This document shows, in pieces, positions 1-49,140 of a stretch of DNA of 64,000 bases. The first letter of the stretch is position 1; each line of letters starts with the position of its first letter. Source of the stretch: Cyanidioschyzon merolae (taxonomy: Eukaryota); NCBI GenBank assembly GCA_000091205.1, contig AP006502.2. One strand, written 5' to 3'. The translations under genes were made by a program, and so were the position numbers. The notes under the pieces were generated by a model, which searched no databases, was not told the DNA's origin, and saw nothing but the letters and a program-made list of their open reading frames with translations.

Positions 1-349
1 TCGAACTTCACGATTTGGCCCAGATGGAAAGCACTGGGATTCCTCGTGACACCGTTCCGAAAATCGATTTGAAAGGCTTGCGTCGTTCGTTGGTATGCAA
101 AGCCCAATAGAGGCCAGCAACAGATGCGTCTGTGTCAATGTTAAACGGCTGTAAACCAGCCTTCGCCATATGCTTGCTCCTGCACATAACCAATTGCACC
201 AATATTCGAAGAATGCGCACTTCACCGCTGTAGCGCCGAAATGCGACTGTACCAGTCATCCGATGTGCGAGTCGAGGCTTTGGGGTAGCTTCGCTCGTGC
301 GTGCAAAGGCATGCGTCGAGACGATAGAGTGCGTATAACTAGTATGCCC

Positions 350-843
350 CTACTCACAGGCGCTTCCCAGCCTTTTTGATTGGCTCCCTGCTATCGTCTT
401 CAGTTTTTCCCTGTGCACTTCCAGCCTGAGAGGCTGTCCCACACATTTGGCTCGTGTCAACTCCGGGTGTGTCGTGTTCAGCACCGCACATATCCTTATA
501 ATGAAGACGGCGTTGGCGTCCCGGTTCTCGAACTCTATGAGTTTCTTGCCGATGCCTGTACGCACCCGTGCGAGGAGTCCTGGAGCTCGCGCCCTGTATA
601 CCATTTGCTGCTCAGTCAGCGCAATGTACTTTTCCATCTCCGAAGTGCTCCGCCGGATTTCCTCCATCGCGACCTTCTGAAGTGCGCAGCCCAGATCATA
701 GTGTATACATACGATGTTCGGATCTCATCTATCCGTACCGTTACGAAATGATGTGCGCACTCCTCGTTCAATCGCGTAGATGGAGCGAGCATGCTCCCTT
801 TTTTGGACGCCCGGCGTCTTGCTCCATCGACGAGAGCATACAA
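350..843 (-). pseudogene. TnpB/Fanzor-like 3' fragment (TSY block + RuvC-III + conserved right end). Left arm of a head-to-head pair.
   Basis: ORFs 616..843 ('RIDEIRTSYVYT') and 350..667 ('IEFENRDANAVFIIRIC...KLKTIAGSQSK'). 3' block 'AAAAAGGCTGGGAAGCGCCTGTGAG' at about 330-360. Confidence 0.6.
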
Positions 844-1254
844 GGAGTGCGCATATCACGTCAACGCGGTACCGATAGACGACTTCCGAACATCGTACGT
901 ATATACTATGATCTGGGCTGCGCACTTCAGAAGGTCGCGATGGAGGAAATCCGGCGGAGCACTTCGGAGATAGAAAAGTACATTGCGCTGACTGAGCAGC
1001 AAATGAAGAGGAGGGCGAAAACTCGGGGACTGCTTGTATTGGTGAGTACAAGCGGCGGCAAGAAACGCATGGAGTTTGTGAACCGAGACTTTAATGCTGT
1101 TATCAATACCAGAAGATGTGCGGTACTGGAGAAGAGACCCCCAGCGTTGACACGAGCCAAATTTGTGGGAGAACCTCTCAAGGTCGAATTCTACGAGAAG
1201 AAGTTGAAAACAGTCGTAGGTGGCCGGTCCAAATAGAAGCGGAGGCGTCCGCAC
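791..1254 (+). pseudogene. TnpB/Fanzor-like 3' fragment. Right arm of the head-to-head pair.
   Basis: 'VPIDDFRTSYVYT' (791..973 frame), then 'EEIRRSTSEIEKYIALTEQQMKRRAKTRGLLVLVSTSGGKKRMEFVNRDFNAVINTRRCAVL' (568..1236 frame). A hairpin GCGGA-GGCG-TCCGC lies 2 nt after the TAG stop (1239-1252). Confidence 0.6.
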
Positions 1255-1925
1255 GTTGGTGTATAGACACGTCGAGTCTACGGCGGACGGACGCGCGCTC
1301 TTCGCGAAGGCCTCCGATCAGCACACGCAATATGCCCTGCGCGTAGGGCTTGCTTGAGGTGCAGACGTCGTTTCGATACGCTCTCGCTTTCGTGAACAGG
1401 CGTTCCTGGTGACGTTCATCTGATAACTAGGGTCTTGCACAATGCACAAACCGGCTTTCCTACACATAGGTTCACTCAGCTTGAACTCGGGCACCAGTGT
1501 GCGCTGGTTAAGGCCGTGTGCGAAAACTCACGCGAGCTGTTGCCGAGTGCTTGTGACGCAGAACCCAGCGTTCCGTGTGGCGCGCACCGGGACGAGCAGC
1601 TCTCACCACTGCAGGCTACGGACTACGAAATCGAGACTTTTCATGGCTTCTGGGCAGGTAGGTATCTTTACGCCGGTCGTCATTGTTGCGCGGGCAATTC
1701 TAGGGAAACAACGCTTCGAGAAAATTCGAGGTAGGGGCATTGCGCTCCACTCGCAGGCTATCACGAACTTTTGTAAGTTTGCAGGTGTCGACAATAAAGT
1801 TCGCCAAGGTCTCATTCGCATGGCGAAAGCGAATGGTAGCAAACTGGGTTTCCTGTCATGAAATGCTCTCTTCATAGCGGGATGAGCGACTCGGCTGCTG
1901 CGCGTGAAGCGCAGCTTGTGGATCC

Positions 1926-2762
1926 CTAGGCGGACTCACGTGCCCACAAAGCGAGGCCGCCGCCGCGACCACGACCAGCAAGAATTCTTGAATCTACGAA
2001 GAAAAAAGTGAAGAACGGCAGACGACGTCGATCTTTCAAGTCAAGCGCTTCTAAAGATGTTGGCCACTTCTTGATGCGTATTCGGGGCAATGTCGCGCCC
2101 ATTAAATGCAAACGGAACTCGCAAAAGTCAAACATTAGGCGCCGCTGCTTCGGTTCGAACATCCATGGTCCAGCAAACTTGATGCCCGCGAGCCTGAACG
2201 GTAAGTGAGCCTCATTCGTAACGGCACGCGCTATGACGGACCCGTGGTTTTCAACGCTAAACTGTATCCTCGCTTCCAGTGGGAAATACAAGCCCGCCCT
2301 TAAGCTCGAAGGGAGTTCGCCTCGTCTCAGCCGCTCAGAGAGCGAGTTCTGTGCAGACTTTTGGATGCTATAGACCAGTCTCCAGCTTCCTTCGAGCTCC
2401 TTCTCTGTCCATAAGCCAGCAGGCTCTCCGCTCTGTCCCGACTTACCCGCTTTCACCCATCTCTCAAGAAAGAGAAGCGCTGTCCCGACTGAGGTGACGT
2501 CTGGAGCGGGCGCTCTGAAAACGGCGGGTGCTGCAGCCGACTCCGTGGTATTGTAGTGCAAGCTGCGAGAAAGCACAGAACCCGCTGCCGCGTGCAGTAC
2601 CTGCACAGCCTCTTTGGGTGCTTCAAAGCCAGCCCTTCTGGGACTTGCACGAACAGCCTTCCACGGCGTTCTTGAACTCGAACTCGCCCGCAGTAGCGCA
2701 ACGCTGAACATAGAGCCTAGCGAGATAGCGCTCGAACACGGGAACACAAGGCACAAACGCAC
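1926..2762 (-). CDS. Possible plastid-lipid-associated protein (PAP/fibrillin)-like ORF, 278 aa. Weak call.
   Basis: Long ORF with 'GLWTEKELEGSWRLVYS' (resembles the fibrillin 'G.W.L.Yt' block) and an S/R-rich N-terminus. Overlaps only the dubious 5' extension of the p44 ORF. Confidence 0.3.
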   Translation of the reverse strand: MRLCLVFPCSSAISLGSMFSVALLRASSSSRTPWKAVRASPRRAGFEAPKEAVQVLHAAAGSVLSRSLHYNTTESAAAPAVFRAPAPDVTSVGTALLFLERWVKAGKSGQSGEPAGLWTEKELEGSWRLVYSIQKSAQNSLSERLRRGELPSSLRAGLYFPLEARIQFSVENHGSVIARAVTNEAHLPFRLAGIKFAGPWMFEPKQRRLMFDFCEFRLHLMGATLPRIRIKKWPTSLEALDLKDRRRLPFFTFFFVDSRILAGRGRGGGLALWARESA

Positions 2763-5559: not shown

Positions 5560-6250
5560 ATTATGAAAACCGGAATAGGTGGTATGGATTCGGGTACGAA
5601 CGCGCTATGCGCGCTACGCCCGTGCGTAAGCTTGAATCCGAGTCCTGAGCGACTCGGTTTGCTCCGGTCTCCCCATGATTCATCGGTATTTCCATTCGAT
5701 TGTTTTCGATCTCCAAGTGCGTTGAATCAAATGCTTTTTCGTGGGTTGTAGCGGACGCGTTCGGAGTGCGTTCATTAGAAGAAATGAAAAATCAAAGGGA
5801 AAGGTACGGGCATGGAGGTCGCGGATGCTAGAGGGCGTTGATCGCCTGGTACCGAAAAGAAGAGGAAAAAATCCTCTGCTCGTCGACTGTCGCGCGATGA
5901 AGACCAAGTGACGAAGGCGAAGAAGAAGAGACAGAGAGGGAATCGTTTAGAAAACAGGTTTGTCTGACGGGATGATGGCGAGACTGTATTGGCACAGAGG
6001 GCACGAGTTCCAGCAATCCGTGCATTGGTGAGTTCCACTGGCGTCCATGCATGCAGGGTTCTCGTGAACGAAGACTTGAACGTCCGCATCCGTATCAGAC
6101 GATATCCGGTGCTGAAGAAAAGACCTGAGGAGACGATGCGATCCGAGTTCGTGGAGCAGCTTGTGACGCTTGTATTATGCAGGGAGAAATTGAAACCGAT
6201 AACAGTCTGCAGGTCGAAAAAGGCCGAGAAGCGCCTGCGAGGGGGTATCT
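5560..6250 (+). mobile_element. Short (~0.7 kb) internally deleted derivative of the TnpB-like family. It keeps 5'-end-like blocks and the RuvC-III remnant plus the 3' block.
   Basis: 'ctcgtgaacgaagacttgaacgtccgcatccgtatcagacg' (= FVNRDLNAAIHIRR, frameshifted). 3' block 'gaaattgaaaccgataacagtctgcaggtcgaaaaaggccgagaagcgcctgcgag'. Collinear with the 54040-54700 copy over its whole length. Carries the family-B-like 'ttttcgatct' and 'accggaat' blocks at its 5' side. Confidence 0.5.
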
Positions 6251-7698
6251 ATTTACCAACCACATTCGCACAGCGTTTTCCGTTTTATTCACGATATTCA
6301 TCGAACCTGCTTCACATGTACGGCCTCGAGATTCCAAGTGCACCAAATAGGGTTTACAGCTTCATACCGAGATCCTTGGTTCTCGGTCGTGTTTTTCGAG
6401 TGGCTTCTTCGAATCTCTGCATCTGGAATTCGTTGTGTTACTGGACTCAAGATGATTCGCGAAGCCCGCGAACAACCATTCGTAAAGCAACCGATATCAG
6501 TAAGCCATTGATCCATACAAACCTCCGGTCTGCTAATTTCCAAATGCAGAGCATTCTCGACTCATGCCTGCTTCGAGTTTTCGATGTTTATGGTTCAGGG
6601 CAACTCGTGAGCAAAGCGATTTGCGCCCTGGATTGACGACAAAAGCGGTCGACGTCATCCCGTGATGACTGGTTCACAAACTAGTATAGAGAGGTCACTG
6701 AAATTCTCCCGTCAAATAAACGATTCCGTTCGAAAGATGTATCCGCCTCTGTTTAGAGTATGGGCGCAACCGTTCTCAGATGCAGTTTGATATCTTTCAC
6801 GATGTATACTTCCCGTCGCACTTGTCTCTTGCGCTAGCAAGGAAACAGGTCCTGGACTCAGAATCGTAGTCGTCAGAGTGATCGCTTCCAGTGCAGACTG
6901 CGTCATTGTTTTGCGAGAAGAGCGCCTGGGCGGATTGAAGTTCCTTGCGTTGCTCTCCAGCCCAGATGCCCTTTCGGTGCTTGTTTCATCGTAAACAACA
7001 ACATGTTCCACGAAAACTCTGTCCTGTGGAACAGCGTGCGCTTGCTTACGCACCGGACAGGGTACTCGTCGAGTCGATGGATCGCAAGGAGTGCCTGGAC
7101 TTCAGGTACGGCACCGGGCCGCCGAAGCCGAGAAGGGCATCGACCGGAGCGTTCTGTCCTTGTTAAGAGTATGTACTCCGCGACGAAGCAAGTGTGCATG
7201 GGCCAAAGGTTTGCCTTCAGAAGAGCAGCAGGTATGGTGTACATTTTGGAATACCGGATCATAGCCGTGTCTCTCCGCTGCGAAGGGCGCATTGAACCTG
7301 CATACGCAGAAGATGAAAACGACAGGTAAAGCGTGGATCTCAAATAGCGGCTGCGGATGAAATGCGCCGACAGCTGCCGAATGCAGCTTGATCGGGACCC
7401 TAATGCTGCCGTCTGTATACCTCGGCTGCTTACAACGGCGCTCTACGAAATAGAGAGACCGGGATACTTCAGGCCGGAGATTAGAGAGAGCACAAAAGGA
7501 AGCAGCCATAGGAAACGCCCGCAATAGCTGGTGTTGATGAGACTGCACTGGGACCTAACCTATACTGTGTACGTCCGAGTTGGCGAACCGATTCCATTTC
7601 CGTCTGACATGGGTGTCGCGCATGCTTCACGCCGGCGATGAACATCTCCGACGTGCAATATCAGTACGTTTCAACAGCAGCTCCGAGTCGAGTACACT

Positions 7699-8994: not shown

Positions 8995-9375
8995 AGAAGC
9001 ACAAAACTACCGAGCTTTCCGCACGCGTTTCGCGTTCTACAAAGCGGCTTCGGAACGAGTGATCCAACACCGCAAAAGTTGCTGTGTTATGCGTTGACGA
9101 AACCGAAGCAGGGTCGCAAGGCAGGGCCCAAAAGGCGCGACTCTATGGACAACGCTTCTAGGGTCCTCGAAAGGCACTAGAGGCGGTACACGCGCTCAAG
9201 CTGTTTCAACGTGTCCGGTACAGCACCGTGTCGTGCGTCAAGCGAGCACAGCACCGGCTACTAGACGGCATCGCGAACGCGGGTGGCGCGCAAAGCTGTT
9301 TCGCGATGCGCGGCGGCGGGACGACGGCGATCGCTGGGCCATTCAGCCGCGCAGGGACACAGGCACCAGCGCATT

Positions 9376-9680
9376 TTTTCATGGACAAAACGTTAACTGG
9401 GGCCAGCGCTCTCCGATTATGCGCATTTTTCTTTTCTTACTTTTTTTTTGTGTTTATTTTTCAGTGCACGGTAAAGTATTCATCAACTCCTACCTCCAAG
9501 TTACATTACCCAGACTTTTTTCTCGGATACGCTGGTCGTTTCATACGTCCTATCGTGTGAGCCTAGTACCTGCCGAAAGCGACCGCTATGGCGCCTATAG
9601 CGCCGGTGCGGTCGCTGCACGGAGACAGAACGGCGTTGCCGTAGCACACACAGAGGGCGTCGGCTCGAGGAGCAGCGCCT
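9376..9680 (+). repeat. Family C dispersed repeat (about 300 bp), copy 1.
   Basis: 'catggacaaaacgttaactggggccagcgctctccgattatgcgcatttttcttttcttactttttttttgtgtttatttttcag...' and 'cacggagacagaacggcgttgccgtagcacacacagagggcgtcggctcgag'. Confidence 0.6.
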
Positions 9681-13228: not shown

Positions 13229-13834
13229 ACCTGGATGATGACGTATAGCTGCGGAAGCGTTCGTAGGTGCAGCGTCATCTCCTGTACAGCGATCGTCGAG
13301 GGCGTGCGCGCTCCACCAGAGCGCGCTGTAAGCGGCGCTTCACTCGAGACGGTCGATTCGGGCGATGAGCGGCGCTTGCGCGTTCCACTGGTGCCCGCGA
13401 CAGATCGCAGACGGCTTTCTTTTTCGAGCTTGTGTCGTATCCGGACTACACATTTGAGGTGCTGGCTATGATAAGATTGCTCTTGATGACGCAAGTAATC
13501 GCAGGCATCCTGTTTGTGCTCATGGGTACACTGCAGCTCGTAGGCTGGGTTCGGGCGAAGCATCCGCAGTATCTGAAGGAATTCAGAACGCTATATCCCC
13601 GGGCGAGGAAATGCATGTTTCCTTTCATTTGATGAAAGCACGGAAGGCTCAGGAAATTTGTTTGCACGCCAATGGGCACATCCTGACTTGGATGTGCGAG
13701 GCCGGTGCGCATGTGACTTTTCGTCACTTTTGGATGATGGTGGATTCGATGATCGTTGCAACCGGTGCATCGTGGTCGTGCCGATGCTGCCGCCGCACAT
13801 GCCGTGGAGCGTGCTCAGAGTCGTGATGATGCTC

Positions 13835-14045
13835 GATATTCGAGCTAGAAAAGCGCACTCGGATTGTTTTCCCAGATTACCGTAGCGGCGACTTGTCATC
13901 ATCCTGCATCTGAACGTTTTGGGCATCGTCATGATGCTCGATATTCAATCGACAAAAGTGCTCTCGGATTGTTTTCCCAGAATACCGCAGCGGCGACTTG
14001 TCATCATCCTGAATCTGAATGTTTCGGGTACGTCTTAAGTTTACG
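13835..14045. repeat. Tandem duplication, 2 x about 105 bp, about 90% identical.
   Basis: 'tgatgctcgatattc...ggattgttttcccaga(t/a)taccg(t/c)agcggcgacttgtcatcatcctg(c/a)atctgaa(c/t)gtt' appears twice. Confidence 0.8.
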
Positions 14046-14246
14046 CACTAGGAAACCGTGGCTTCCCGTGCGGCTTTGTCAAGCACTGTTCGCGACCAGC
14101 ATGCCATCACCAGAGCACCTGGCGCCGGCCGGAGCCTTCAGCTTCTTTTACCGATCGTTTGATAGCGTCAGTCAAGATGGATCGGTTCTGGACTTCAGCT
14201 CCATCACGAGTGTTTTAGACAAAACGCCATCAGTATCAGATGATGT

Positions 14247-14440
14247 ATGGTGATGGAGGTGCGACCTGCGGAGCTGGTGCGATCCAACTTTGGGCGGCAG
14301 CCTGCGAGGCTAGAGATATGCAAGGAGAGGCTGAAACCGATCGCAGTCGGCAGGTCAAAACAGGCGGGGAGGCGTCTGCAATTGGGTATCCCTTTACCCT
14401 ACATGCGCATAGGACATTTCTCGGTTTCATTGAGTATAAA
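14247..14440 (+). pseudogene. TnpB-like 3'-terminal remnant (tail only).
   Basis: 'RLEICKERLKPIAVGRSKQAGRRLQLG' with 'gaggctgaaaccgatcgcagtcggcaggtcaaaacaggcggggaggcgtctgcaa'. Abuts an inverted family-B copy. Confidence 0.45.
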
Positions 14441-14469
14441 TCCGAACGAGCCCCTCTGTTCTAACTTTG

Positions 14470-15700
14470 GAGTATGCACTTAATAAAGTGCCTCCTCCAA
14501 ACCTCATCAACACCAGCCTTCTAAGGCATTTCTTTGACCGCTTCTTTTACGCTTTCGTTTTTGCGGCTTTCAATACGCCAGTCTCTCCTTTTACTCTAGC
14601 TTCTTCTTCAACTGACACAGGATGCGGATCGCCGTACTCAAGTCATGATTTCGCTGCATGGGTTGTTGCCGATGTAGTCCAGGCACAGGCGCAAGTTGCG
14701 ATCTACGCTTCGCTTGCCGTTTTCATCTACTGCATATATGGTATGCGTGCGCTCTTCGCGGCTGTGACGCTTGACTGTGATCAGGTGTTCCCGTGCGCCA
14801 ACAACATCTCCACTTCCGATAACCGCTCTATCGCACGTGAACGCTCGCCTCATCGCTCGGTATATGCTCTTGACGGGTAGAGAGGTTCCCGTCGGTACCC
14901 GCCTCCGTTTCCGCGCTCTTTGTCGTACCCTGCGATCACGGGCTTCTTCGAGACGATTCTTGTGACAAGTACCTTGTACGCGGCACACGCACATACAGGC
15001 TGTTCTATTCGACAGAGAATTCGTGGAATACGAGATTGTCCATAACAAAACAAGAATCGGAAGGAATACCTAGGCTGAAGAACAAGCCGAGAAATCTCGT
15101 TCAGTCAACGTTCCCTGTATACAAAAAAGTAACGGACTCTTTCCTTGAAGCGATCGTTGCGATGACGCGGACCCATGTTCCAGGCTGTATTCCTTGCTGA
15201 CAGAAGAGACGAGAGTATCTCAGAAAATGTCACGTGCGACGCATCGCGCTGCTGTCGAATGAGGTTTCGTCAATGGCCACGAAGGCAAAATAGTGTGTTT
15301 TTCGATTCGAATGTATGATTTGACTTGAGCGATTCAATCAAGTTTCGGGGTTAGCTCGTGAACCAATCGGCAAGAGTCGACGTCATGGCACATCGCTCAT
15401 CGCCATTTCCGTGTCGCGAATTGCTGCGCCCATGAGTCGCAAGGCAAAAAGGTCTAAAACATGAAAAACGCGTGCTTTGTGCACACTACAGCTGAAGAAA
15501 CGAGAAGCGTGGGGCTCGCACGCATGAATTTTCTCATGTTACCGATTTTTTTCCGAACCACAGTTCGATCATTCCGCGAATGACCTCGTTTCCAATGATG
15601 TTTCGAATTCCAGCGGCAAAGCGTCGAAGGAGCTACGCCCAAAACCACGATCGAGTATCCACAACCCACGTCCGACTTGGTACGTACATGTTGCTTGCAA
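14470..15700 (-). mobile_element. Family B copy B8, inverted. It directly abuts the TnpB-like remnant at 14247-14440.
   Basis: Minus-strand ORFs 14638..15048 and 14850..15053 are homologous to B1 ORFs ('KKPVIAGYD', 'HTIYAVDENGKRSVDRNL'). The reverse-complement of the block-A motif lies at about 15600-15640. Confidence 0.5.
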
Positions 15701-19666: not shown

Positions 19667-19896
19667 CCTGGGAAGCGCCTTGGTGCGCGAAGCGGCAACA
19701 AATGGTACTCGAAGCCGTCAACAAGTCTCAGAGGATGCTCGGGCACCTCCTCAACAAATAGTGACGAGGTAACGATCAAAAGTCGGGTGTGGCGGGTATG
19801 CAATCGCTATGATGCTGCACAGCACGCGTCAAAGAACCAGCTGTCGAAAAACCGAAACCTACCCGACGACGATACGCGTTACTGCTCTCTTTATGA

Positions 19897-20070
19897 GCAC
19901 TTGTCACCGGTGAGCGCTGGCACCAAAGTCCTCTGCACAGCGCGCTCCTCACAGCACCAGCTTGTCGCGTTCTATCCTCTAGCACAAGAGCTTCCCGTCC
20001 GAGCACTTGTCACCGGCGAGCGCTGGCACCAAAGTCCTCTGCCCAGCGCGCTCCTCACAGCACCAGCTTA
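19897..20070. repeat. Direct repeat, 2 x about 66 bp separated by ~43 bp. Lies in the bidirectional region between the AGC kinase (-) and the DUG-fusion gene (+).
   Basis: 'cacttgtcaccgg(t/c)gagcgctggcaccaaagtcctctgc(a/c)cagcgcgctcctcacagcaccagctt' occurs twice. Confidence 0.8.
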
Positions 20071-20528
20071 CCGCGTACCGTATACCGTAGGTGTCGTGCT
20101 TTGACGTCAGTACGCTCAGCAGCTCCCGATTTTATCAGGTCCGGTCTGATCCAGGAAAACGAAAAGACTCTCCACCGACACGTGAAAAGGACGCTATGTC
20201 CAAAGCACCGGGTAACGCTCGCGGACGTCGAACACAAGAACGCCACCGGCCTGAGAGGGCGAGTTTCGAACCCGCACCACCACCGTTTGGCTTCGCCCCC
20301 TGGAGCGCAGCGCTCAACGGTGACGTCGCACCGCAGTCGGTATGCAGGGGTCGCGTCTTTACGCAGGGGACTTCGTTTAGCGACACTTGGAAAGGTACAC
20401 TGCTACACAGTGAAGAACCGTGCTTGCACTTGTGGCAGCGAGTCTCGTGACTGTGACCAGAAACTCTATCATCGAGCGATTTTGCATTAGCTGCGCACCG
20501 CTGCCTCTCAACCGCACCGTACTTCAAC

Positions 20529-25103: not shown

Positions 25104-25354
25104 TTTGCAGCAGTTGTCGCAGCGAGCCGAAAATCGTTTGCGTTCCCTTGTCCGCGGAAGCCGCAACCACGAGTTGGCGTCACCAGCGTCGCTCTGAACG
25201 AGTCCTGCTTGCGCGTGCGTGCACTGGCCAGGGTAGAGCCCTTCGTGGACGTCACCTGCAATGGCACGAAGACGCTCTGGTCCGTGCGTCACAGAGTCGT
25301 GCATACCGCGGCTGGTGCACCGCGCCAACACAGGTGTCCTCGTTTGGGTTCTCT

Positions 25355-25650
25355 CATGGATAAAACGTTTTCTTAGACCAGCGTTTTCCGATTGTGTGCT
25401 TTTTCTTTTCCTACTTTTTTCGTGTTTTTTCAGTGTGCTTTGAAATATCCATCAAACCCGCTACCTCCGAGTTACATTACCTATACTTCTTCTCGGATAT
25501 TTTCGTCGTTTCATGTGTTCTATCGCACACCTTATGCCTGCCCTAATCATCCGCAATAGCGTCTTTACCTTTGGTCCAGTTGCATCACGGAGACAGAACG
25601 GCGTTGCCGTACCACAGAGGGCGTCGGCTCGAGCTCGGTTGGGTGCAGGT
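25355..25650 (+). repeat. Family C copy 2, immediately upstream of ORC4.
   Basis: The same blocks in the same order ('...cacggagacagaacggcgttgccgtaccacagagggcgtcggctcgag'). Confidence 0.6.
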
Positions 25651-27693: not shown

Positions 27694-28955
27694 TGTAGAT
27701 GTACAGCGTCCGCATTCAGCGTGATGCAACAAAGGTGTATGGATTCATGTGCAGTTTTAGGGTTCTGGATCTCGTTTTCTGGGTGACGCCTTCGACGCCC
27801 TGCCGCTGGAATTCGTTACGCCACCGGAATCGAGAAATCTGGGACGCTCTTGAACAACGGTTCTTACATTAAGTGATATTTTTTTATCCAATGCATACAT
27901 GGATGCAACCACTCGTCTTCTATGCTTACGCGTAGTGCGCTAACATTACGCATGTTCCAAGTTTACGGTCTCTTTGTTTCAAGGCAACTCGTGGACGCAG
28001 TAATACGAACCGCTGGATTGGCGATAACGCAAAGCCGACATCAACCCGTGACGAATGATTCACGAACTGGTGCCGAAAGTTTGCCGCGCTGCTCACGTCA
28101 AATAATCGGTTCCTTTCGAAAGTCAATTCGCCTCGCTTTGTAACCGCTGATGAGCTTGCATGCGATACCGGCATGATCGCTGTCGGGTGATGTGCTCCTA
28201 GCGTCTACCGTCTCTGTTGCTTGTATGAAAAGAAGGGTCATGGACACGGTCTTGGTACGCCGCAGCGATCGTTCCCAGTGCAGCGTTTGTCACCGCTTTT
28301 GCGCGAAGGAAGCGACAGCGGATCGACATTTCTCGGCTTGTTCTATGGCCTGGATTTTGCTTTCACCGATTGTTTCATTATGGACAACGTCGCGTGCCGC
28401 AAATCTTTGACCGAATGGAAAAGCGTTCGCTTGCGCGTGCACCGGAGAGCGTGCTTGCTGAAGCCACTGTTCAGAAAGAGCCTGTGATCATAGTGTACGG
28501 TGCCGGACTCGAAAACGGACGGGGACATCAACACTAGCCTTCTGTGCCCGTCAAAGGCATGTAGAGTCCGATGGTGCAAGCGTCCACGAGCCACAGACCG
28601 ACGTTTAGAATTGGCGTTGTGGTGGACGTAGACGAGCGTTTGATCATTGTCAAGTGCCGCTGCTGCGAATCGCGTACTGAGGCAGTACGTGTATGAAATG
28701 AAAAAGGCAAACGGAGCGTAAATCGGATTTCCCGCCTGTGCATCGAATGCGCCAACAACTACCGGAAGTAGCGAAATCGAGCCTTGAACCCTGCCACCAA
28801 CACCCTTCTACTAATGACCACAGAGGCCGGGGGAACAGACGCTACCAGTGCATTGAAAGCGCGAGATAAACAAGAGGAACAAGAATCAATCGCAGAGCAA
28901 GCCCGAAAAGACTCGTGTTGATGATCGTGTGAAGAGCCACAAACTTTAGTGCTTA
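27694..28955 (+). mobile_element. Family B copy B2.
   Basis: 5' 'tttgtagatgtacagcgtccgcattcag'. Blocks 'ttcgacgccctgccgctggaattcgttacgccaccggaatcgaga' and 'gtttcaaggcaactcgtggacgc'. 3' 'aaactttagtgctt...cttgttctattctggtatcaca'. Confidence 0.6.
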
Positions 28956-30727: not shown

Positions 30728-31975
30728 CGGGTACAGCACAGAGGGGTTTCCGGACTCATATGTCGTTGTAGGATTCGCGGTTATTCATACAGAGTGGTGC
30801 CTTAGACGCGTTGACACTGGATTCCGGTACGTCACCGAGAGCAAGAGGTTTCACGACGCTCTTGGGCACGGGTTCGTAGGATAATCGGTACCATGGCACA
30901 GTTCATTCGCAGAAAGCACCGCTCTTCTCCTTTCCTACCGTCTATCACGCTCAAATCACGCATGGCCCAAGTTTTCGATCTTTATGTTTCGTGGCAACTC
31001 GTGGGCGCAACAATGCACGCCGCTGCATGGACGACGAAAAAACTCCACATCGTCCGTTGACGACGTTATCACAAGCGTATGTCGAGAGCTTACAGAACTT
31101 GTCGCGTCAAATAATGGATTCATTCGAAAGACGAATCCTCTACTTTCATGGTTATCTCCGATACGACATTCGCCGCACCGTGGTATCTCCAACGGGTTGA
31201 AGCTCGCGGAGGCTGGTGCCTCATCTGTTTGCATGGAATCGGATCTTGAATTCGGAATGGAGCCATCGCAACGATCGCTTCCAATGGAGACTGCCGCAGC
31301 GCTTTGCGAGAAGGAACCGAAGAAAGACTGAATTCTCTCGTATTGATCTCTAGCACGGGGGTTAATCCCTGGGCGTGCCTCATCACGAACAGCATTGTAT
31401 TCCAAAACAACCGCTCTCGGTTGGGAAATCGTGGATTGCCTTGCACAGCGAGCAGCGTACTCGCCAAGCGTACTGCCCAGAACAGGCCTGTGATCGTCGG
31501 GAACGGCACCGAGAGCCGGATCCGGAAGAGGATCGTGCGGAGCCCTCAGTACCAGTTATGGGCACGTAATGAGCACCGAAAATGGTGCTCTTGTGCAGGG
31601 CGGCTGCGCTGAGCGCAAGCGGCGAGCTGCGCGTTCGAAAACACCTGACCACAGCGAAGTAGCAGCTCGTCTTACGGGTCACCGAGTCTGTTTCCAGGAG
31701 TGACGAGAATGGCAAGCGAACCGAAAACCGCGACTGCTGTCTGTGCATGAAATCGAGCGACAGCATTCTTGAGCTGCGAAACTGAGACTTTCACGCTGCT
31801 ATGAACAGTGCTCGAATGCGGACAACGGGGCTGGATGGAAAGGAGAGACTGGCGTAGTGTAAGCGAGAGACAAGCGTGTAGAAAAGGAAGCAGCCGCAGA
31901 TAACCCCTGCAAAAAAGCCGATGTTGAAGACAGCAGGAACATGGACCGAATCATTAGTGTCTGCGCCCGAGTTAG
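30728..31975 (+). mobile_element. Family B copy B3.
   Basis: 'ttttcgatctttatgtttcgtggcaactcgtgggcgc', 'AQNRPVIVGNGTE' (ORF 31304..31612). Tail '...aaaaggaagcagccgcagataacc...gaccagttctatttattctgacgagg'. Confidence 0.6.
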
Positions 31976-32642: not shown

Positions 32643-32868
32643 GTTACGACGGATGCAGCGTGGACCCGAACACGCGTGCGCTCCGAACGTACACCTGATG
32701 CAAGTTATAGCGTGCTTCCGCCTCGGCGGTCGGTGCATCGCGGAACTACGACGGATGCAGCGTGGACCCGAACACGCGTGCGCTCCGAACGTACACCTGA
32801 TGCAAGTTATAGCGTGCTTCCGCCTCGGCGGTCGGTGCATCGCGGAACTCGGTGTAGTGCTCTGTGGC
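32643..32868. repeat. Perfect tandem duplication, 2 x about 113 bp.
   Basis: 'ctacgacggatgcagcgtggacccgaacacgcgtgcgctccgaacgtacacctgatgcaagttatagcgtgcttccgcctcggcggtcggtgcatcgcggaa' occurs twice in succession. Confidence 0.9.
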
Positions 32869-34809: not shown

Positions 34810-35317
34810 GCGCTCAGTAACTACAACGAGTTGCGTGGTAGTGCGACCTTAAACTCGACTGGAGTGCGCTGGCACCACGTGCTCTAGAAATGCACGTTTC
34901 AGCCACAGAGACGCGTAGTGACGCCTCAGTAGCGCGTACTAAAACTCCGCGGCAGCTTGAGCCTATGCGTAGCCAAGAGAGTCGGCGTGAGCAGCTTTCT
35001 CGATGAAACCGCTCCTGCAAGATCGTGCTCGATTTTGATTGCAGTGCAAAGCAACCCTTTGAAAAGTTAGGGAATAAGTCGGAGTCTGTGGTGTTGCACT
35101 CCCCAGAACTAAGCGTTATCTCTTGGTGGTCCAGCGGGTAGGCAGCGTGATTAACGCATCGGCGCACGCCTCTGTAGGCTGGACCAAAGGCTCCGCGCCG
35201 CGGACGTCGCCGTGCTGCACAGATCCCGCTGATCGATCTGCTTGATGACGCTCGATCGCTACGAGGCCGTGCGTGATGCGGTTTTTTCGGATATTGCCTT
35301 GTAGGATCGATATTTCC

Positions 35318-35870
35318 GACCTGGAAGTATTACTGCTTGCATAAGTACAGCTTAAATATGATTTCTGTATAGATCCTATCATTGTAAAAGACGGATGCAT
35401 CTGACCTGAAAGCATGACTGCTTGCATAAATACAGCGTATACATGATTTCGTTATAAATCCTATCATTGTACAAGACAAATGCATCTGACCTGGAATCAT
35501 GACTGCTTGCATAAATACAGCGTATACATGATTTCGTTGTAAATCCTGTTATTGTACAAGACCAATGCATCTGACCTGGAATCATGACTGCTTGCATAAA
35601 TACAGCTTAAATATGATTTCTGTATAGATCCTATCATTGTAAAAGATTGATGCATCTGACCTGAAAGCATGACTGCTTGCATAAATACAGCGTATACATG
35701 ATTTCGTTGTAAATCCTGTTATTGTACAAGACCAATGCATCTGACCTGGAATCATGACTGCTTGCATAAATACAGCTCAAATATGATTTCTGTATAGATC
35801 CTATCATTGTAAAAGATTGATGCATCTGACCTGAAAGCATGACTGCTTGCATAAATACTGCTCATATTGC
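35318..35870. repeat. AT-rich tandem repeat, about 6.5 units of ~85 bp. Two alternating variants give a ~170-bp higher-order period. Lies in the divergent AKR/ASS intergenic region.
   Basis: Units such as 'gactgcttgcataaatacagcgtatacatgatttcgttgtaaatcctgttattgtacaagaccaatgcatctgacctggaatcat' repeat head-to-tail. Overlapping identical small ORFs in the track (MQAVM...) reflect the periodicity. Confidence 0.9.
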
Positions 35871-38059: not shown

Positions 38060-39305
38060 TCAATATTCGAAGCACATCGGTAAGGGTTCTCGTGTTCGTA
38101 TGAAGGCTAAGAATTGTCGGTCGTTTTCTCATAGTGACTTTTTAGACGCTTTGTCGCTGGAACTCGCAAATTCACCGGAATCGAGATGCTTCGCGACGCA
38201 AACCGACACGTTTCCTAAACTAACCGATAACATGATCCGATTCATGAGTACAAGCCGCAAAGCTTCTCTGTTCCCGAAATTTAGCACCTTCGAATCACGT
38301 AAAGTTTTGGATCACCCTGTTTCAAGGTCAAAGGTGGCGCGCAGCAAAACGCGCTGCTCTCTCGACGAGGAGACAAGCTGAACGTCGTCTTTTGACGACT
38401 TTTTCGGAAGCCCGTGCTGAAAGTCCGATGAACTTTCACGTAAAAAAATCGATTGCTTTTGAAACGCAATTCTTCTGCTCTTTTTTGCGATCAATGGTAC
38501 AGTCTTCGACCACGGTACGATACCTCCGGCAGGGGGGGTACGCTCCCAGAGACTCGCGTCTCAACTGTTTGCGTGGAAAATGCTCCTGGATTCGGACTCT
38601 AGTCAATGCGACGACCGTGTCCAATGGAAATAGCGCCACTTGTTTGCATGAAGCGATCCTAGACAATTCGGAAACTCTCGGCTTCTTTTCCAGCGTGACT
38701 TTTCTTACCGATACTTGTAGCACCAGGGAAAACGACGGGTTCCACTGGTCCTTTTTCGAAAGGAGCGACGTTTGCGTACGTCCGCAGCGGACAGCGTACG
38801 CACAGAGGAAATCGCTTTGACCAAGCCCGTGATCGTTGGGTACTTCGCCGGCTACCGCAACCGGGTGAGGCATCCAAGGTAGCCTTGTGTGCCGGTCAAG
38901 GGCTTGTGCCAAACGATGAGGCACCATTCGCGCGTCACCGGTCGGTTTTCGGAGCAAGAGGCGTGCTGTACATGTGGAAGCACTCGACCACAGCCATATA
39001 TGTCAGCGCTGTGACGGGCGCACCAGGACTGTTTACAAAGAAGATTCGTAGATCGCAACATCCGTCTGTCCATGGGATGCGTAAATACCAGTGGGAAGCC
39101 GCAAAACGGGAATTGAACGCTTCCATGAACATCATCGGACTGCTGAACATGAAACTTGAGAAAGAGGAGAGATGGACGTATTGCAAGCCGGAGACGACAG
39201 AGAGGAGCAGAAAGCAGTCCCAGAAGAGCCCGCAAAGTCCAGTGCTGATAATAGCGGGAACAGGTCCGAGCTTCAGTGCGCACGCGAGTGATCGCGGACC
39301 TGTTC
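38060..39305 (+). mobile_element. Family B copy B4.
   Basis: 'ttagacgctttgtcgctggaactcgcaaattcaccggaatcgagatgcttcgcgacgc', 'ctgtttcaaggtcaaaggtgg'. Tail 'gagcagaaagcagtcccagaagagcccgcaaagtcc...ggacctgttctattctattctgacatgg'. Confidence 0.6.
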
Positions 39306-43837: not shown

Positions 43838-44985
43838 TGTCATATATAGAACTGGGGCAAACCTAGCTGCACCGCTGTCGGAATGAAGCGGAAAAGGCCT
43901 GTACAACAAGTGCGCAAACTAGTGTTCTGCACTGTGTTCCAATTATCATTTAAACCAGTCTTTACGGTTTGTGTTCCTTGGCTGGTTCCTTTTACACGCT
44001 CTCATCTCGGGGTTTAAAAATGATGGCATGCCCTTTCACATCAGATTCGTTGTCAATATTCGGAGGATAATGAAGGCAGCACTCAAGTCCCGATTTCCCT
44101 GTTTCCGGCAATTGCAAACGCGTTTCGTGTAAAGGCAAATGTTGCGATCTACGACTCTTTCTCGTATACAGCCTTGGTGCATCCTTTACAGCAGCGACAC
44201 TATGGCATGGTCAGGTGTTCCCGTATGTCCTTCAAACCTATTCCTCCGATCGCCGCCCGGTGGCGCGACAAACGCTTAGTTCGTCGCCCGGTACATGCGC
44301 TTAATGGACACAGCGGCTACCAAGATGCTCTCCTCTGTTTAAGCGCCCAGTGCCGCAGCCCACGATCACGGGCTCTTTCGGGGCCACGCACTCGGCGCGT
44401 ACGCTGTCCGCTACACACGCAAGCACACGTTGCTCCATTCGATAGAGATTTTCTGGAACGCGCTGCTGTCCATCATAGAGCAATGCTCGGAAGCGGAAAT
44501 CCACGCTGCATATCAAGTCGAGAAACGTCGTTCTGTCCAGGCTTGGCTCTGACAGAGCTCTGACGCAGTTGCCACCGAGAGCGATCGCTGCGGTGACGCA
44601 AGCCCCAGTACGAGACACGTTTCCACGCAAACGGAAGAGATGGAAGCCTCTGGCTGCATGCCCGGCAGGATGCATCAAGCTGATGTGGAATGCGGTCTCA
44701 CCGTGGGCCACACTGAGAATAGGATTTGCGTTTCGAACGGCTCGAGTATTTGAAGCGACAGTCTCAGTGACCTTGGGGCATGAGCTTGTGAACCAGTGGT
44801 TCAGAGACGACGTCGGGTATTTCTCCTGCTCAATACGACGCTGGCGATTGCTGGGCGCTCGAGCTGCCTTGAAACCGGAGATCGAAACGTGAAAAAAGCG
44901 TGATTGTAGCATGCTACGCGGGAAGAGAGAAGAAAAGCAGCGGCTTGGACGTGCGCATTGGACAATGATGCCAGATGGCTTAAAA
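43838..44985 (-). mobile_element. Family B copy B5 (inverted), with an intact 203/224-aa ORF (44301..44912).
   Basis: The ORF is near-identical to those at 59828..60502 and 62545..63219. The reverse-complement terminus 'tgtcatatatagaactgg' is at about 43838. Confidence 0.6.
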
Positions 44986-45245
44986 ACGTTTATATGAACT
45001 CGCCGAGAATCGCCTTGATTCCAGTGACGGGACGCTTTCCAGCTGCAAAGAATCGAAACAGCGACTTTTAAAAGATAACCGATAATTAAAAAGTTCCAAA
45101 CGGATGTGTAAACCCCTCATGTTGGAATTCGAATATCGAAAGTGCATATCTGACATCTCGTTCAGAAAAGCATCGAGAGACACCACCGCCTCTCGAAAGT
45201 CGAACGACGTCGCCGGCAGTGTACAGTAGTGGCAAGTGACCCGCC

Positions 45246-47383: not shown

Positions 47384-48829
47384 CAGTCCCGACGACGCCT
47401 TGACGATACTCTTAGAGTACGAGTCGACACGTTATTTTTATAGCATCTCGCAACTTTTCCCTGTAGGGATCCTTGATATGTTCAAGAAAACAGGTCTTCA
47501 CCACCATCTCGTCGTAGAGTTGTCTTCCCCGCGCAGCCTTCGACTTAGGGCATCCCCCTTTCGGTTCTTCTCCTCTTCCATTTCTTCTGGACTCGGCACT
47601 GTTCTTTGTTTATTTTTATGGCAGCTGGAGACCCTGAGCCTCCAAGATCGTGGACTTGCTTTTTCATAACTTTCCTTTTTTTAGTTTTTTTTTGAAAAAG
47701 AACACTCTTTGAACGCTTCTGTTATATTCTGCGAATAAACACTCGAGTGTTTTTACTTGAGGTTTGAAACACGACTGAGATGAAACAATATATTTTGTTA
47801 CGATTCCAATGCAAATACAAGTCTTACGTTAGAACAAAACGCTACTGATTACGATCGCGTTTCCCTTCAACGGCGACATGCGCGTCGCGTCAGTTGACTG
47901 CCTGATCTCCTTGGTGCGCTCACCGAGCGGGATGCAAACTAGTCACAAACTTTTTATCAAAGATCAACTATCTTAAAAGCCCCACACACCACGCCCGCCT
48001 AAGTGGTCCAATTTTTCCGGAGAAGCTCTGAAAGTGGGTTAACACGAATGTTTGGGCGACGAGGAAGGAAGCCCACTCCAGGGACCTTGACCGCAACGAA
48101 CGGAGGGGCAGAGGCAGTAGCAGAGAATGATGACGAGAATTCGAAGTAGTTATCCGCTGCTCTCGAAACAAGGCTGCAGGTTCGGGCGCAAATCCTGGAT
48201 CCATCCTTGAATTCGGGCTCAGTTTTATGGTCTATCTTGGTTTCTACCTCAACTTTGGAAACAATCTCGGCGGATACTTTGGAAGACGGCTGACAGCATG
48301 TTCGCCGTCGAAGCTGACATAAGCGACTTGCCCGCCTATGTGTTTGGGGAGCGGATACGAAACCGCTGAAAGGGTGGTTTGTAGACTGTTCCCAATGGTT
48401 TAGGGTGGCTTCACGCGTCCGGCAAGATAAAGGTCGCATTTGAATCGACCTTGACTAATGTACTTTTGATTCTATGCTAGCGCTGCGGCAGATACGCAAT
48501 GAACGACTGGAATGCAGGAGGCAATGGTGGCTTGTGCGCTCACATACCCCGTGGAGGGTGCATCTAAATCGACCTTCTAGTCGGAAGGTCCAGCGAATCG
48601 GATACGCACACTGGCACATTGCGCTTTCTGCGCTTACCCACTGTGGTGGGTGTCAAGCACAAACCCGCATTGCCAACCGACAACAACGCATTCCATGCAT
48701 GATCACGAAGGAGAGAGGCGGCTCCCAGAATGTATCCTAACAGCCAAGTTTCTCCAGCGTGTCGTGCAGCGAAGGCAAGCTTGCATCCGCAGACTGTCCA
48801 AGCACAAACTGACGACGAGATCCGATTCT

Positions 48830-49140
48830 ACGTCGGGTGAAGCACACCTCGAGCCGACGCCCTCTGTGGTATAGAAAAGCTGTTCCAGCTCCATGAACTA
48901 TCTGCTCCAGCATTTAAGGTGCAAAGGCGGACACGGAAAGGCAGGTAGTAGGCACACAAAATATGACGTGTGAAACGACCAGAATATCCGAGAATAAAGT
49001 CTGGGTAATGGAGCTTGGAGGCAGGGCGTTTGATGGATACTTTACAGTGCACTGAAAAAACACAAGAAAAGTAAGAAGAAAAATGTACATAATCGGAGAA
49101 CGCTGGCCTAAGTAAACGTTTTGTCGATGAAAAAAATACG
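48830..49140 (-). repeat. Family C copy 3 (inverted), just upstream of the 49203 gene.
   Basis: The reverse complement carries 'catcgacaaaacgtttacttaggccagcgttctccgattatgtacatttttcttcttac...' and 'ctataccacagagggcgtcggctcgag'. Confidence 0.55.

Follow-up and report, generated by a model that had tools for sequence, protein, structure and literature searches.

Arm-to-arm gene conversion was reportedly described by Rozen et al. in 2003 for the human Y-chromosome palindromes P1-P8. Fold-back duplications, which carry a short asymmetric spacer and microhomology, arise from intrastrand annealing or template switching, as seen in yeast and in cancer genomes. Among the eukaryotic relatives of TnpB, CMe-1A is the Fanzor1 family of Cyanidioschyzon merolae, with ~150 copies that are ~80% identical to the consensus (Bao & Jurka 2013, PMC3627910); the element is ~3 kb long, has no TIRs and is unclassified. 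The Chlamydomonas Fanzor1 elements CRe-1/2/3 are of Helitron2 type, 5'-truncated and overabundant in their 3' parts, a pattern described as 'one-ended transposition' (PMC3627910). Neither a head-to-head palindromic arrangement nor two tail lineages are mentioned in that paper.

Here we analyse a 64,000-nt stretch of the C. merolae genome (contig AP006502.2; hereafter the window), in which an imperfect palindrome of ~945 bp occupies positions 343-1287. It is very probably a non-functional nuclear relic composed of two dead CMe-1A Fanzor1 3' pieces arranged head-to-head, with one block homogenised by gene conversion. The features discussed below are the following:

343-817, minus strand: left arm, derived from the 3' part of a CMe-1A Fanzor1 gene, 5'-truncated and frameshifted (tblastn, alignments, tail classification, permutation test)
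818-1287, plus strand: right arm, a frameshifted 3' piece from another CMe-1A lineage, likewise truncated at its 5' end (tblastn, alignments, tail classification, permutation test)
602-727, minus strand: near-identical core as found in the left arm, probably the donor, at least in the latest tract (alignment, strain comparison)
880-1005, plus strand: right copy of the core, a putative conversion block that includes the shared +2-nt frameshift (alignments, family distances)
961-993, plus strand: putative most recent conversion tract (comparison with ten other assemblies)
1134-1173, plus strand: possible older conversion tract, mirrored at about 434-473 (shared rare states)
45165-47599, minus strand: c45k, the nearest long copy within the window, a CMe-1A Fanzor1 pseudogene of almost full length that has a type-B tail
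57625-58087, minus strand: c57k, the type-A 3' fragment to which the outer ~120 nt of the left arm are most closely related
5989-6342, plus strand: further type-A fragment (c6k)
14226-14467, plus strand: further type-A fragment (c14k)
54411-54745, plus strand: further type-A fragment (c54k)

Structure and family membership of the palindrome

An inverted-repeat search returned two arms of 416 nt each (374-789 and 818-1233) that are 78% complementary and lie 28 nt apart, and the gapped arm-to-arm alignment places the symmetry centre at 803/804, in agreement with the position near 800 given by an earlier note on this DNA. The near-perfect inverted match that the note had seen between 596-720 and 885-1010 was recovered by alignment with an offset of about 5-7 nt. 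It corresponds to a core (880-1005 against 602-727) of ~120 nt in which the arms are ~97% identical, compared with ~65-75% elsewhere. The longest run with at most three mismatches spans 120 nt (885-1004, mirrored at about 603-722); the core block has 4 mismatches or indels in 121 columns versus 65% identity in the remaining 356 columns (P about 1e-14, corrected for start positions), and the longest comparable run in 5000 column shuffles reached only 61 nt. The near-identity of the central arms thus stands as an internal ~120-nt block that begins about 80 nt from the palindrome centre. The '~900-bp perfect core' claimed earlier does not exist, and neither does a simple outward decay of identity, the innermost 60 nt (818-879) being only about 75% identical between the arms.

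The earlier description of the arms as head-to-head 'TnpB-like' 3' fragments is correct and can be made more exact: they belong to Fanzor1, the eukaryotic TnpB homologue. A profile of 13 family proteins matches Parasitella parasitica Fanzor 1 (PDB 9cf0-9cf3, E=6.8e-9), with a second, weak stretch spanning DEFRTS...NRD. The Pfam TnpB models PF07282 (TNB) and PF01385 (OrfB_IS605) gave no match at cut-off in the arms, c45k or six of seven full-length homologues (P0120 scored 15.3 bits against PF07282, under its cut-off of 26.3), and the Fanzor1 assignment therefore rests on the profile-to-PDB match. Residues D484-P485 (..DPG..), D655-E656-F657-R658, N723, D725, N727 and A729 are invariant RuvC positions in the family alignment, and the split RuvC motifs I (D), II (E) and III (D) are all present at the family level. 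The long copy, whose ORF and tail together span ~2.4 kb, has 131 homologues; at least 496 matching stretches were found across metagenomes, with pairwise distances of 0.17-0.33, and no terminal inverted copy was seen near full-length family members. Host, Fanzor1 coding capacity, copy number, divergence and lack of TIRs all agree with CMe-1A as described in print.

We used c45k as the reference for the gene segment represented by each arm. In tblastn searches with the family protein P0003, residues 623-663 map to 825->703 and residues 663-752 to 703->437 of the left arm, which is thus equivalent to about residues 623-752 followed by ~40 nt of a type-A post-stop tail. The right arm covers about residues 636-752 and ~54 nt of a type-B-like tail, the last letters of which are GTCTACGGCGGACGG. 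Each arm therefore comprises only ~390 nt from the end of the ORF, followed by 40-54 nt of tail, and the 5' part is missing. The 28-nt 'spacer' at 790-817 was assigned to the left arm because it continues the left reading frame with S-K-K-G (AAAAAAGG), corresponding to PKKG in c45k. As the earlier note had read, both arms carry the TSY block and RuvC-III with the 3' block facing outward (...DE(F/I)RTSY..., NRDxNA(V)... and the post-stop block are recognisable). The RuvC-II glutamate is replaced by D in the right arm (IDDFRTS), both arms share a +2-nt frameshift after the TSY codons, and RuvC-I falls outside the tblastn coverage of either arm (P0003 residues ~623/636-752 only), leaving neither with a complete ORF that contains all three RuvC segments. 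Because RuvC-I is absent and the +2 frameshift is shared, neither arm is able to encode a nuclease; and because nuclease coding and the 3' terminus are missing from both, the palindrome is now neither a gene nor a mobile element.

The outer ends differ in type, the left being type A (AAAAAGGCTGGGAAGCGCCTGTGA) and the right type-B-like (...GCGGAGGCGTCCGCACGT). Within AAAAAGGCTGGGAAGCGCCTGTGA, c57k and the left arm agree at 24/24 positions. Distances over the final ~80 nt are 0.22 between the left arm and c57k, 0.43 between the two arms, and 0.17-0.20 between the right arm and type-B copies (100% bootstrap). This bears out the proposal that the two outer ends (~120 nt) belong to different terminal subfamilies. 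In the right arm, the family 3' terminus is missing its final ~65-80 nt, and a tail-end permutation test indicates that the terminal ~60-80 nt are absent from both arms. Continuation of the left arm into a full type-A tail was rejected, and so was a rearranged terminal hairpin kept in the right arm (permutation z about 0 versus 13-15 in controls). In the Fanzor1/TnpB superfamily, a guide (omega) RNA is encoded at the 3' end of the transposon, the part of the tail that is incomplete in both arms. Three sequence-conserved hairpins were recognised in the type-B tail, with 79% of cells paired versus 29-54% in shifted controls. Compensatory changes in these hairpins were considered and rejected, covariation by pair counting being no higher than in shuffles.

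The palindrome was found in ten other assemblies (eight plus two; JGI and ENA), at 98.4-99.3% identity and with the same junction. The worry that it is an assembly fold-back or collapse artefact can practically be dismissed. Two short-read contigs do stop inside it (L013 at 1065 and L097 at 745), as might be expected of a region that is hard to assemble, but a fold-back chimera cannot give arms that are only 78% alike, and the ten assemblies, made from different samples with different assemblers, reproduce the whole structure. The window also agrees with the chromosome-scale record of C. merolae 10D, two of its proteins being exactly BAM83278.1 and BAM83265.1. An exact-sequence look-up with the ATG-start form of PRPP synthetase also gave a match. 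The predicted single-stranded DNA fold is strong (-326 kcal/mol, z=-27), yet all 11 full-length versions are collinear and differ by at most one indel; the fragile or cruciform site postulated earlier is thus not indicated.

The palindrome occupies the spacer that separates a PGR5-like gene from a conserved upstream gene, and its flanks are unique on both sides. Synteny is kept in Cyanidiococcus and in a metagenomic relative, and no Fanzor sequence was found at the syntenic spacer of either. This spacer measures 705 or 1003 nt in the two relatives versus ~1650 nt in C. merolae, and the extra length relative to Cyanidiococcus equals that of the palindrome (945 nt). The outgroup intergenic DNA is too diverged for alignment, and neither the exact insertion site nor a target-site duplication can be defined. 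Judged by these spacer comparisons, the palindrome is an evident lineage-specific insertion of ~945 bp.

Probable gene conversion between the arms

Within the core, the arm-to-arm distance is 0.05 and the distance to each of 46 non-redundant family copies is at least 0.23, both core copies diverging by ~23-27% from all other family members. Outside the core, the arms are no nearer to each other than to unrelated copies (~25-35% apart). The elevated arm identity is thus not explained by family-wide conservation, and because the near-identity is specific to this pair, the core would reflect arm-to-arm gene conversion.

Comparison among strains points in the same direction. The window sequence has A at 961, CATT at 981-984 and T at 993, and all six are left-arm states; the ten other assemblies have TGGA at 981-984 and A at 993. 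Five of these right-arm changes (981-984 and 993) are private to the window strain, and the sixth is common to two other assemblies, position 961 being A in 3 of the 11 versions. Block acquisition of partner-arm states is therefore visible among strains, in a single haplotype represented by one sequence. On this evidence, a recent tract of 13 nt or more (33 nt if 961 is counted) has apparently been copied from the left arm to the right in the sequenced strain. We infer that gene conversion is at work here: the inverted arms would recombine non-reciprocally, which would have homogenised the ~120-nt block and would still be enlarging it, with the left arm as the likely donor, at least in the latest tract. 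Pair-specific identity and the strain-private tract of left-arm states together uphold the gene conversion that the earlier note proposed for the central part; its alternative, template switching during replication of that part, is not needed to explain the core. A possible older conversion tract lies at 1134-1173, where the arms share states that are rare in the family at 1140, 1153, 1157, 1158, 1161 and 1167 and where local arm identity is ~82%.

A different reading of the near-identical core is that it has been kept by selection on a functional sequence, such as an RNA element or a family-silencing hairpin RNA. Inverted transposon fragments can yield silencing hairpin RNAs, as in the case of maize Mu killer, and the region would fold strongly. 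However, the core sequence is not conserved elsewhere (23-30% divergence in the 46 copies and c57k), an Rfam scan of positions 1-2000 gave no match to any family, and in the strain-private tract the partner's states have been taken over as a block, which is the signature of conversion. In addition, silencing of this kind needs RNA interference, the machinery for which is reported to be absent from C. merolae (PMC11376382). We regard a functional core as very improbable.

Origin of the head-to-head arrangement

A larger head-to-head CMe-1A palindrome of ~2 kb, with one shared centre junction, is present at no fewer than three sites (L057/L065, L083/L080 and L092). The L057-type copies are ~90% identical, their homology stops at the element 3' terminus, and their downstream flanks are unrelated. 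The L057 and L083 palindromes also contain short stretches of high identity; a reading of these as conversion tracts was rejected, because they correspond to the G.TPAPTTR..KECA segment, which is conserved at the DNA level throughout the family. A fixed two-end architecture, in which type A and type B would be the ends of one element, was also rejected: the tail on the minus arm of L057 is type-B-like, and no inverted type-A piece lies upstream of full-length copies.

Mobile foldback or MITE-like elements are expected to have several copies, a shared junction and intact termini. The L057-type unit provides the multi-site, shared-junction part of this definition; the window palindrome falls outside it. 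That the latter is, or once was, a mobile non-autonomous 'double-3'-end' CMe-1A derivative inserted as a unit appears improbable to us. Such a unit could account for the occurrence of L057-type palindromes with one junction at three or more sites, for the exact 15-mer shared by the right-arm tail and the L057 minus-arm tail, and for the match between 945 nt and the extra spacer length relative to Cyanidiococcus, which fits a one-piece insertion. However, a search with the left-arm ORF returned only the same locus and no paralogue, the terminal ~60-80 nt are missing from both arms, and no target-site duplication or ends can be defined; moreover, the mobility of the L057-type palindrome is itself putative, being deduced from its downstream flanks. 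More generally, head-to-head 'double-3'-end' dimers might be a recurrent product of CMe-1A replication, for example by copy-back strand switching from the 3' end, with at least one dimer able to spread and the window palindrome as a decayed, end-trimmed case. We consider this unlikely, if worth stating: were it true, the dimers would offer a handle on the transposition mechanism of a transposase-less, TIR-less Fanzor1 element. Palindromic dimers of the family do recur, and one of them has multiplied, a lead that could help to explain how an old family of this kind reached ~150 copies.

For the window palindrome itself, we tentatively prefer an origin in one inverted duplication, by fold-back or copy-back, of a fragment that had already been truncated. 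This preference follows from the short asymmetric spacer, which comes from the left copy, and from arm boundaries that are symmetric within about 25-35 nt, the inner truncation points agreeing within ~30 nt and the outer ends within ~25 nt. A possible GCTCC/GGAGC microhomology is located at 818-825; the one-arm spacer and the microhomology are as expected of a fold-back, although modest, the sequences being short. In such a scenario, an already truncated CMe-1A fragment would have been duplicated head-to-head, and the mosaic seen today would be the outcome of later patchy conversion, some of it arm-to-arm and some with other family copies as donors. In neighbour-joining trees, the two arms are sisters when set against the 46 type-B copies (86% and 97% bootstrap). 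When type-A fragments are added, the left arm joins them to the exclusion of the right arm (96-100% bootstrap, with long-branch attraction possible). Rare shared states number 18 in the outer part (~4 expected) and 8 in the inner part (1.5 expected), but many of them are also type-A or polymorphic family states, which weakens the count as a sign of single origin. Private differences from the consensus in the outer part (56 in the left arm versus 18 in the right, P=1e-5) count against a simple duplication, and the tails differ in type right up to the arm ends, a pattern that ectopic conversion would produce only with difficulty.

The main competing scenario assumes two independent CMe-1A-family fragments, type A on the left and type-B-like on the right, that came to lie head-to-head, were symmetrically trimmed and were then partly homogenised by conversion. 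It is plausible, though short of probable, and is consistent with the different tail lineages (the left arm being akin to the type-A copies c57k, c54k and c6k), with the unequal divergence of the outer parts from the family (0.33 versus 0.16) and with a non-core arm similarity no greater than that to unrelated copies. The coincidence of the inner (~30 nt) and outer (~25 nt) ends demands special trimming at both ends. Repeated cleavage and rejoining of a hairpin or cruciform tip ('centre-break' deletions) could conceivably supply it, and the region does make a long predicted hairpin as single-stranded DNA. On the other hand, the family 3' terminus expected in a transposed copy is missing from both arms, and the joint placement of the arms against the 46 type-B copies also speaks for the preferred fold-back duplication.

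Comparison with known systems

The window palindrome is, overall, a tidy but ordinary relic of a known family. In annotation, 343-1287 should be recorded as a dead CMe-1A pair: it is neither a gene nor an RNA, nor does it stem from an assembly error. The knowledge of Fanzor function is left unchanged. The family in the window resembles the published CMe-1A in its host, its Fanzor1 class and its high-copy, old population of copies that are ~75-85% alike, some with intact ORFs, whereas the two arms differ from the element in being frameshifted and in having lost the 5' part and the 3' terminus. Similarly to CRe-1/2/3 of Chlamydomonas, many copies in the window are short 3' pieces whose 5' ends vary (c6k, c14k, c54k, c57k and both arms). 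However, one-ended copies keep the 3' terminus that both arms lack, and for CMe-1A, which is unclassified, no Helitron features or target-site duplications emerged from the analysis.

With fold-back duplications, the locus shares arms that start at nearly the same position, a 28-nt spacer derived from one arm and a possible microhomology. Fresh fold-backs have identical arms, whereas here the arms are ~25-35% diverged and the outer lineages differ, making the signature old and blurred at best; the unique flanks and the lack of a chromosome-scale palindrome set the locus apart as well.

The closest parallel for the homogenised core is found in the human Y-chromosome palindromes, with which the locus has in common the inverted arms, a short spacer, the apparent non-reciprocal transfer and a polymorphism in which the states of one arm appear in the other. 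The scale is different, with arms of 9 kb-1.45 Mb there versus ~0.5 kb here, where only a ~120-nt patch is homogenised, and the Y palindromes carry genes under selection whereas the window palindrome carries dead transposon sequence. It thus provides a compact natural case of conversion in a haploid and very small eukaryotic genome, acting on inverted repeats that are short (~0.5 kb) and strongly diverged, with a putative conversion tract caught as a polymorphism among strains.

The palindrome and its genomic setting

The palindrome at window 343-1287 is a real, independently confirmed and lineage-specific structure, comprised of two dead 3' fragments of the CMe-1A Fanzor1 family in head-to-head orientation. 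The earlier note on this region was largely correct. A repeat search of the first 3 kb gave one dominant inverted repeat (416-nt arms at 374-789 and 818-1233, 78% complementary, 28 nt apart). When the left half was reverse-complemented and aligned with gaps to the right half, the symmetry axis fell at 803/804, and the near-identical block lay only a few bases from its first description. The features discussed here are listed below.

Fanzor1-related features and the neighboring gene in the window
343-789, (-), left arm; near-identical block at 602-727
818-1287, (+), right arm; near-identical block at 880-1005
1640-1861, (+), PGR5-like ORF, ~350 nt from the right arm
5989-6342, (+), c6k, short 5'-truncated type-A 3' fragment
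14226-14467, (+), short 5'-truncated type-A 3' fragment
54411-54745, (+), c54k, short 5'-truncated type-A 3' fragment
57625-58087, (-), c57k, short 5'-truncated type-A 3' fragment
about 45165-47599, (-), c45k, the longest copy related to the arms, a single reading frame interrupted by two in-frame stops and a frame change
45165-45285, (-), type-B tail, also at L018:3425-3545 and 20 other metagenome loci

Ten independent assemblies (JGI, ENA/MEGAHIT, Logan) were recovered with PRPP synthetase as anchor. The entire palindrome is present in eight of them at 99.0-99.3% identity to window 1-2000 with zero gaps, and in two further strains, found later, at 98.4-98.9%. Two short-read metagenome contigs break within it (L013 at 1065, L097 at 745), so that the structure is awkward to assemble; these ends are probably caused by the ~100-nt exact inverted repeat. 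Since the arms differ by 22%, a fold-back chimera is impossible, and the assembly artefact considered previously can be dismissed. As single-stranded DNA, 340-1290 has a predicted fold of -326 kcal/mol (z=-27), by which a hairpin or cruciform would be physically possible. Despite this strong fold, collinearity is kept across eleven versions of the locus, which gives no sign of instability at the proposed fragile site. C. merolae reportedly has no RNAi machinery (PMC11376382), which makes a role as a silencing hairpin unlikely.

The cysteine synthase and PRPP synthetase of the window exactly match C. merolae 10D BAM83278.1 and BAM83265.1. The local arrangement of genes (a 367-aa gene upstream, then the PGR5-like gene, a 261-aa gene, Ssl1/TFIIH p44 and PRPP synthetase) is kept in Cyanidiococcus yangmingshanensis and in a metagenomic relative, where the spacer contains no Fanzor-like sequence. 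The PGR5-like ORF is 85-86% identical to its syntenic counterparts, thus the palindrome occupies the spacer upstream of a conserved photosynthesis gene. In C. merolae this spacer is about 1650 nt long, compared with 705 nt in Cyanidiococcus and 1003 nt in the metagenomic relative. The excess over Cyanidiococcus, 945 nt, equals the palindrome length, as would be expected if the palindrome was inserted in one piece. Since the spacers could not be aligned, the match suggests such an insertion but is no proof of it.

The "TnpB-like" character of the arms was borne out, in its eukaryotic form. Pfam gave no match in the arm pieces or in c45k, and Rfam gave no family match in window 1-2000. For the conceptual protein of c45k, 131 homologues were found (40-97% identity), some intact at 600-750 aa; six of seven examined in Pfam had no match and the seventh had a sub-threshold match to PF07282 only. 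In an alignment of 13 family proteins, the invariant motifs ..D.PG.., ..DEFR.. and ..N.D.N.A.. correspond to RuvC-I, -II and -III, and its profile matches a single experimental structure, that of Parasitella parasitica Fanzor 1 (PDB 9cf0-9cf3, E=6.8e-9), which identifies the family as Fanzor1. The right arm translates as ...APSTRAYKECAYHVNAVPIDDFRTSYV / (frame change) / YDLGCALQKVAMEEIRRSTSEIEKYIALTEQQMKRRAKTRGLLVLVSTSGGKKRMEFVNRDFNAVINTRRC...GGRSK*, and the left arm as a more decayed form of it. Both arms are dead fragments: they cover only residues about 623/636-752 of P0003, a 752-aa homologue, lack RuvC-I, and have in common a +2-nt frameshift just past the TSY codons; the right arm has D at the RuvC-II glutamate position.

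Near-identical core and divergent tails

The earlier description of a ~900-bp perfect core decaying outward from the center does not hold: the near-identical block measures about 120 nt and is internal, with lower identity on either side.

Identity between the arms, in right-arm coordinates (gapped alignment)
818-879: about 75%
about 885-1004: 95-100%
1005 to about 1240: 65-80%
past about 1250: random level

Taking 343-789 and 818-1287 as the arms, 4 mismatches or indels fall within the 121 columns of the core, whereas the other 356 columns are 65% identical. If up to 3 mismatches are allowed, the longest run extends over 120 nt, compared with a maximum of 61 across 5000 column shuffles (P about 1e-14 for a core-like run, corrected for start positions). 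Over this segment both arms lie 23-27% from all 46 non-redundant copies of the family and 30% from c57k, yet only about 5% from each other. Core identity is therefore not due to segment conservation, and the pattern is that expected of arm-to-arm sequence transfer.

Comparison with other strains shows such a transfer directly, as a newer tract. At 961, 981-984 and 993 the right arm of the window reads A, CATT and T, whereas the bases found in the other full-length assemblies are TGGA (981-984) and A (993) in 10/10, and G (961) in 8/10. All six window states are the complement of their left-arm partners (646, 626-623 and 614), which are invariant across assemblies. A tract of at least 13 nt (33 nt if 961 is counted) was thus copied from the left to the right arm in the lineage leading to the sequenced strain, extending the identical block at its outer edge. 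Of the 11 private window differences in 2 kb, 5 fall within the 13-nt stretch. The tract at 981-993 is known from one sequence at assembly level; its origin by assembly error is unlikely, as a double path switch within 25 nt would be required. Rare states common to the arms at 1140-1167 (local identity about 82%) may mark an older tract. The central gene conversion proposed earlier is thus supported by the pair-specific core (~5% versus at least 23%) and by the left-arm states in the right arm: on sequence grounds, the ~120-nt core was homogenized by conversion between the arms, and the newer tract represents a strain polymorphism.

The outer ends do belong to different terminal subfamilies. 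Directly past the GRSK codons the left arm has AAAAAGGCTGGGAAGCGCCTGTGA, of which 24 nt are identical to c57k and near c54k and c6k (type A). The right-arm tail, ...GCGGAGGCGTCCGCACGT..., is like c45k and most of the family (type B).

Tail distances (last 80 nt of the ORF plus tail) and neighbor-joining (NJ) bootstrap
Left-arm tail: 0.22 to c57k, 0.43 to the right arm, at least 0.365 to any type-B copy
Right-arm tail: 0.17-0.20 to type-B copies, 0.43-0.48 to type-A copies
Left arm with type A, to the exclusion of the right arm: 100% (tail segment), 96% (1006-1180)
Right arm just outside the left-arm/type-A clade: 90%
Two arms as sisters, type-A fragments omitted: 86-97%
Long-branch attraction among decayed sequences may influence these NJ groupings.

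Neither arm extends to the true 3' terminus of the family, as the terminal 60-80 nt of the respective tail type found no similarity past about 343 or 1287 (z about 0; controls 13-15). The type-B tail (~135 nt past the GRSK codons) is well conserved and has three hairpin-forming inverted repeats, with 79% pairing versus 29-54% in shifted controls; covariation by pair counting was not above shuffles. Fanzor guide RNAs derive from the transposon 3' end and may overlap the ORF end (Saito et al. 2023, PMC10432273). The type-B tail is a candidate for the omega-RNA of CMe-1A or for a scaffold at its right end; its hairpin-bearing part is absent from both arms. The four short type-A fragments share a ~105-nt tail, ..GGCTGGGAAGCGCCTGTGA..TTTACCCTCC..TCGTGGGAC..CGATAT, unlike the majority type-B tail. 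Of these, c6k and c54k have a further ~290 nt in common upstream (5731-6020 and 54149-54420), and c54k and c57k are convergent and flank the cysteine synthase gene.

Origin of the palindrome

We tentatively favor a fold-back or copy-back inverted duplication of one already truncated fragment, followed by mosaic conversion, as a plausible origin. The arms start within about 30 nt of each other in the gene and end within about 25 nt in the tail, neither contains a transposon terminus, and the 28-nt spacer keeps the left copy's frame (S-K-K-G, AAAAAAGG; P-K-K-G in c45k), with possible GCTCC/GGAGC microhomology. States common to the arms and off consensus are also in excess (outer 18 versus about 4 expected; inner 8 versus 1.5). 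The unequal private changes of the arms (56 versus 18, P=1e-5) and tail lineages distinct up to the arm ends speak against a single duplication, and many of the arm-shared states also occur in type A or are polymorphic in the family. If instead two different copies were joined head-to-head and then trimmed symmetrically, the differing tails would be accounted for, but the missing termini and the double symmetry would not; we regard this origin as possible but somewhat less likely. Insertion of a pre-formed unit, or something else, is unlikely.

Palindromic dimers of CMe-1A and other repeats

A scan of 80 family loci for second fragments revealed a larger palindrome of ~2 kb (L057:1545-3560), in which a (-) copy (P0003 442-752) and a (+) copy (460-752) stand head-to-head. 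Its arms, 73-80% complementary, are cut near residue 433-460, in the acidic repeat region. L065 represents this same locus, at 98.9% identity that continues through the flank; L083/L080 and L092 carry the same unit, about 90% identical and collinear through the same center junction, with homology ending at the element's 3' terminus and unrelated downstream flanks. This palindrome was thus formed once and is now at at least three sites; it appears to behave like a multiplied palindromic unit. Across sites its (-) arms are ~95% alike, the (+) arms just 87-88%. Its short high-identity stretches were rejected as conversion tracts because they map to a segment conserved family-wide. For the window palindrome, a left-arm ORF search recovered only its own locus. 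A second kind of inverted pairing is found at L081:3001-3866, where a (+) type-B copy meets a (-) type-A fragment tail-to-tail and their 3' termini come within ~10-20 nt of each other.

The acidic repeats are 75-nt (25-aa) tandem units between the N-terminal part and RuvC-I of the Fanzor1 ORF, located at window 46160-46462 (inside c45k) and at the center of the L057/L083 palindromes. Their number differs among copies (P0001 versus P0004), and L057 has one unit fewer than L065, L083 and L092. Other repeats were also observed.

Other repeats in the window
43937-45065, 59685-60817, 62390-63535: ~1.1-kb dispersed repeat, three copies, 91-92% identical; older relatives at 14778-15106 and 38756-39238
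9374-9670, 25354-25633, 48847-49135: short dispersed family 1, 70-76% identical
6576-6749, 27938-28134, 30948-31139: short dispersed family 2, 70-76% identical
35315-35867: tandem array, ~85-nt period
32645-32849: perfect 2 x 103-nt duplication
13821-14028, 19895-20076: two smaller tandem repeats
~53.85-53.95 kb: CTGC-type microsatellite, translating as ACLPACLP...

The ~1.1-kb repeat encodes an ORF of 203-224 aa (MLQSRFFHVSISGF...) and might be another C. merolae TE; its copy at 43937-45065 adjoins the c45k 3' end, in the opposite orientation to the two other copies.

CMe-1A was described as one Fanzor1 family in C. merolae, represented by about 150 copies that each match a consensus of about 3 kb at about 80% identity, with no TIRs, class unknown and some copies still intact (Bao & Jurka 2013, PMC3627910). 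In the metagenome collection, relatives of the C-terminal segment are encoded by at least 496 stretches, and non-redundant copies are about 17-33% from one another and from the arms; these data fit the published description. The same paper makes no mention of palindromes. The family, TE-derived inverted repeats and conversion between arms are already known, and the recurring, multiplied palindromic dimer of CMe-1A is a better lead than the window palindrome.
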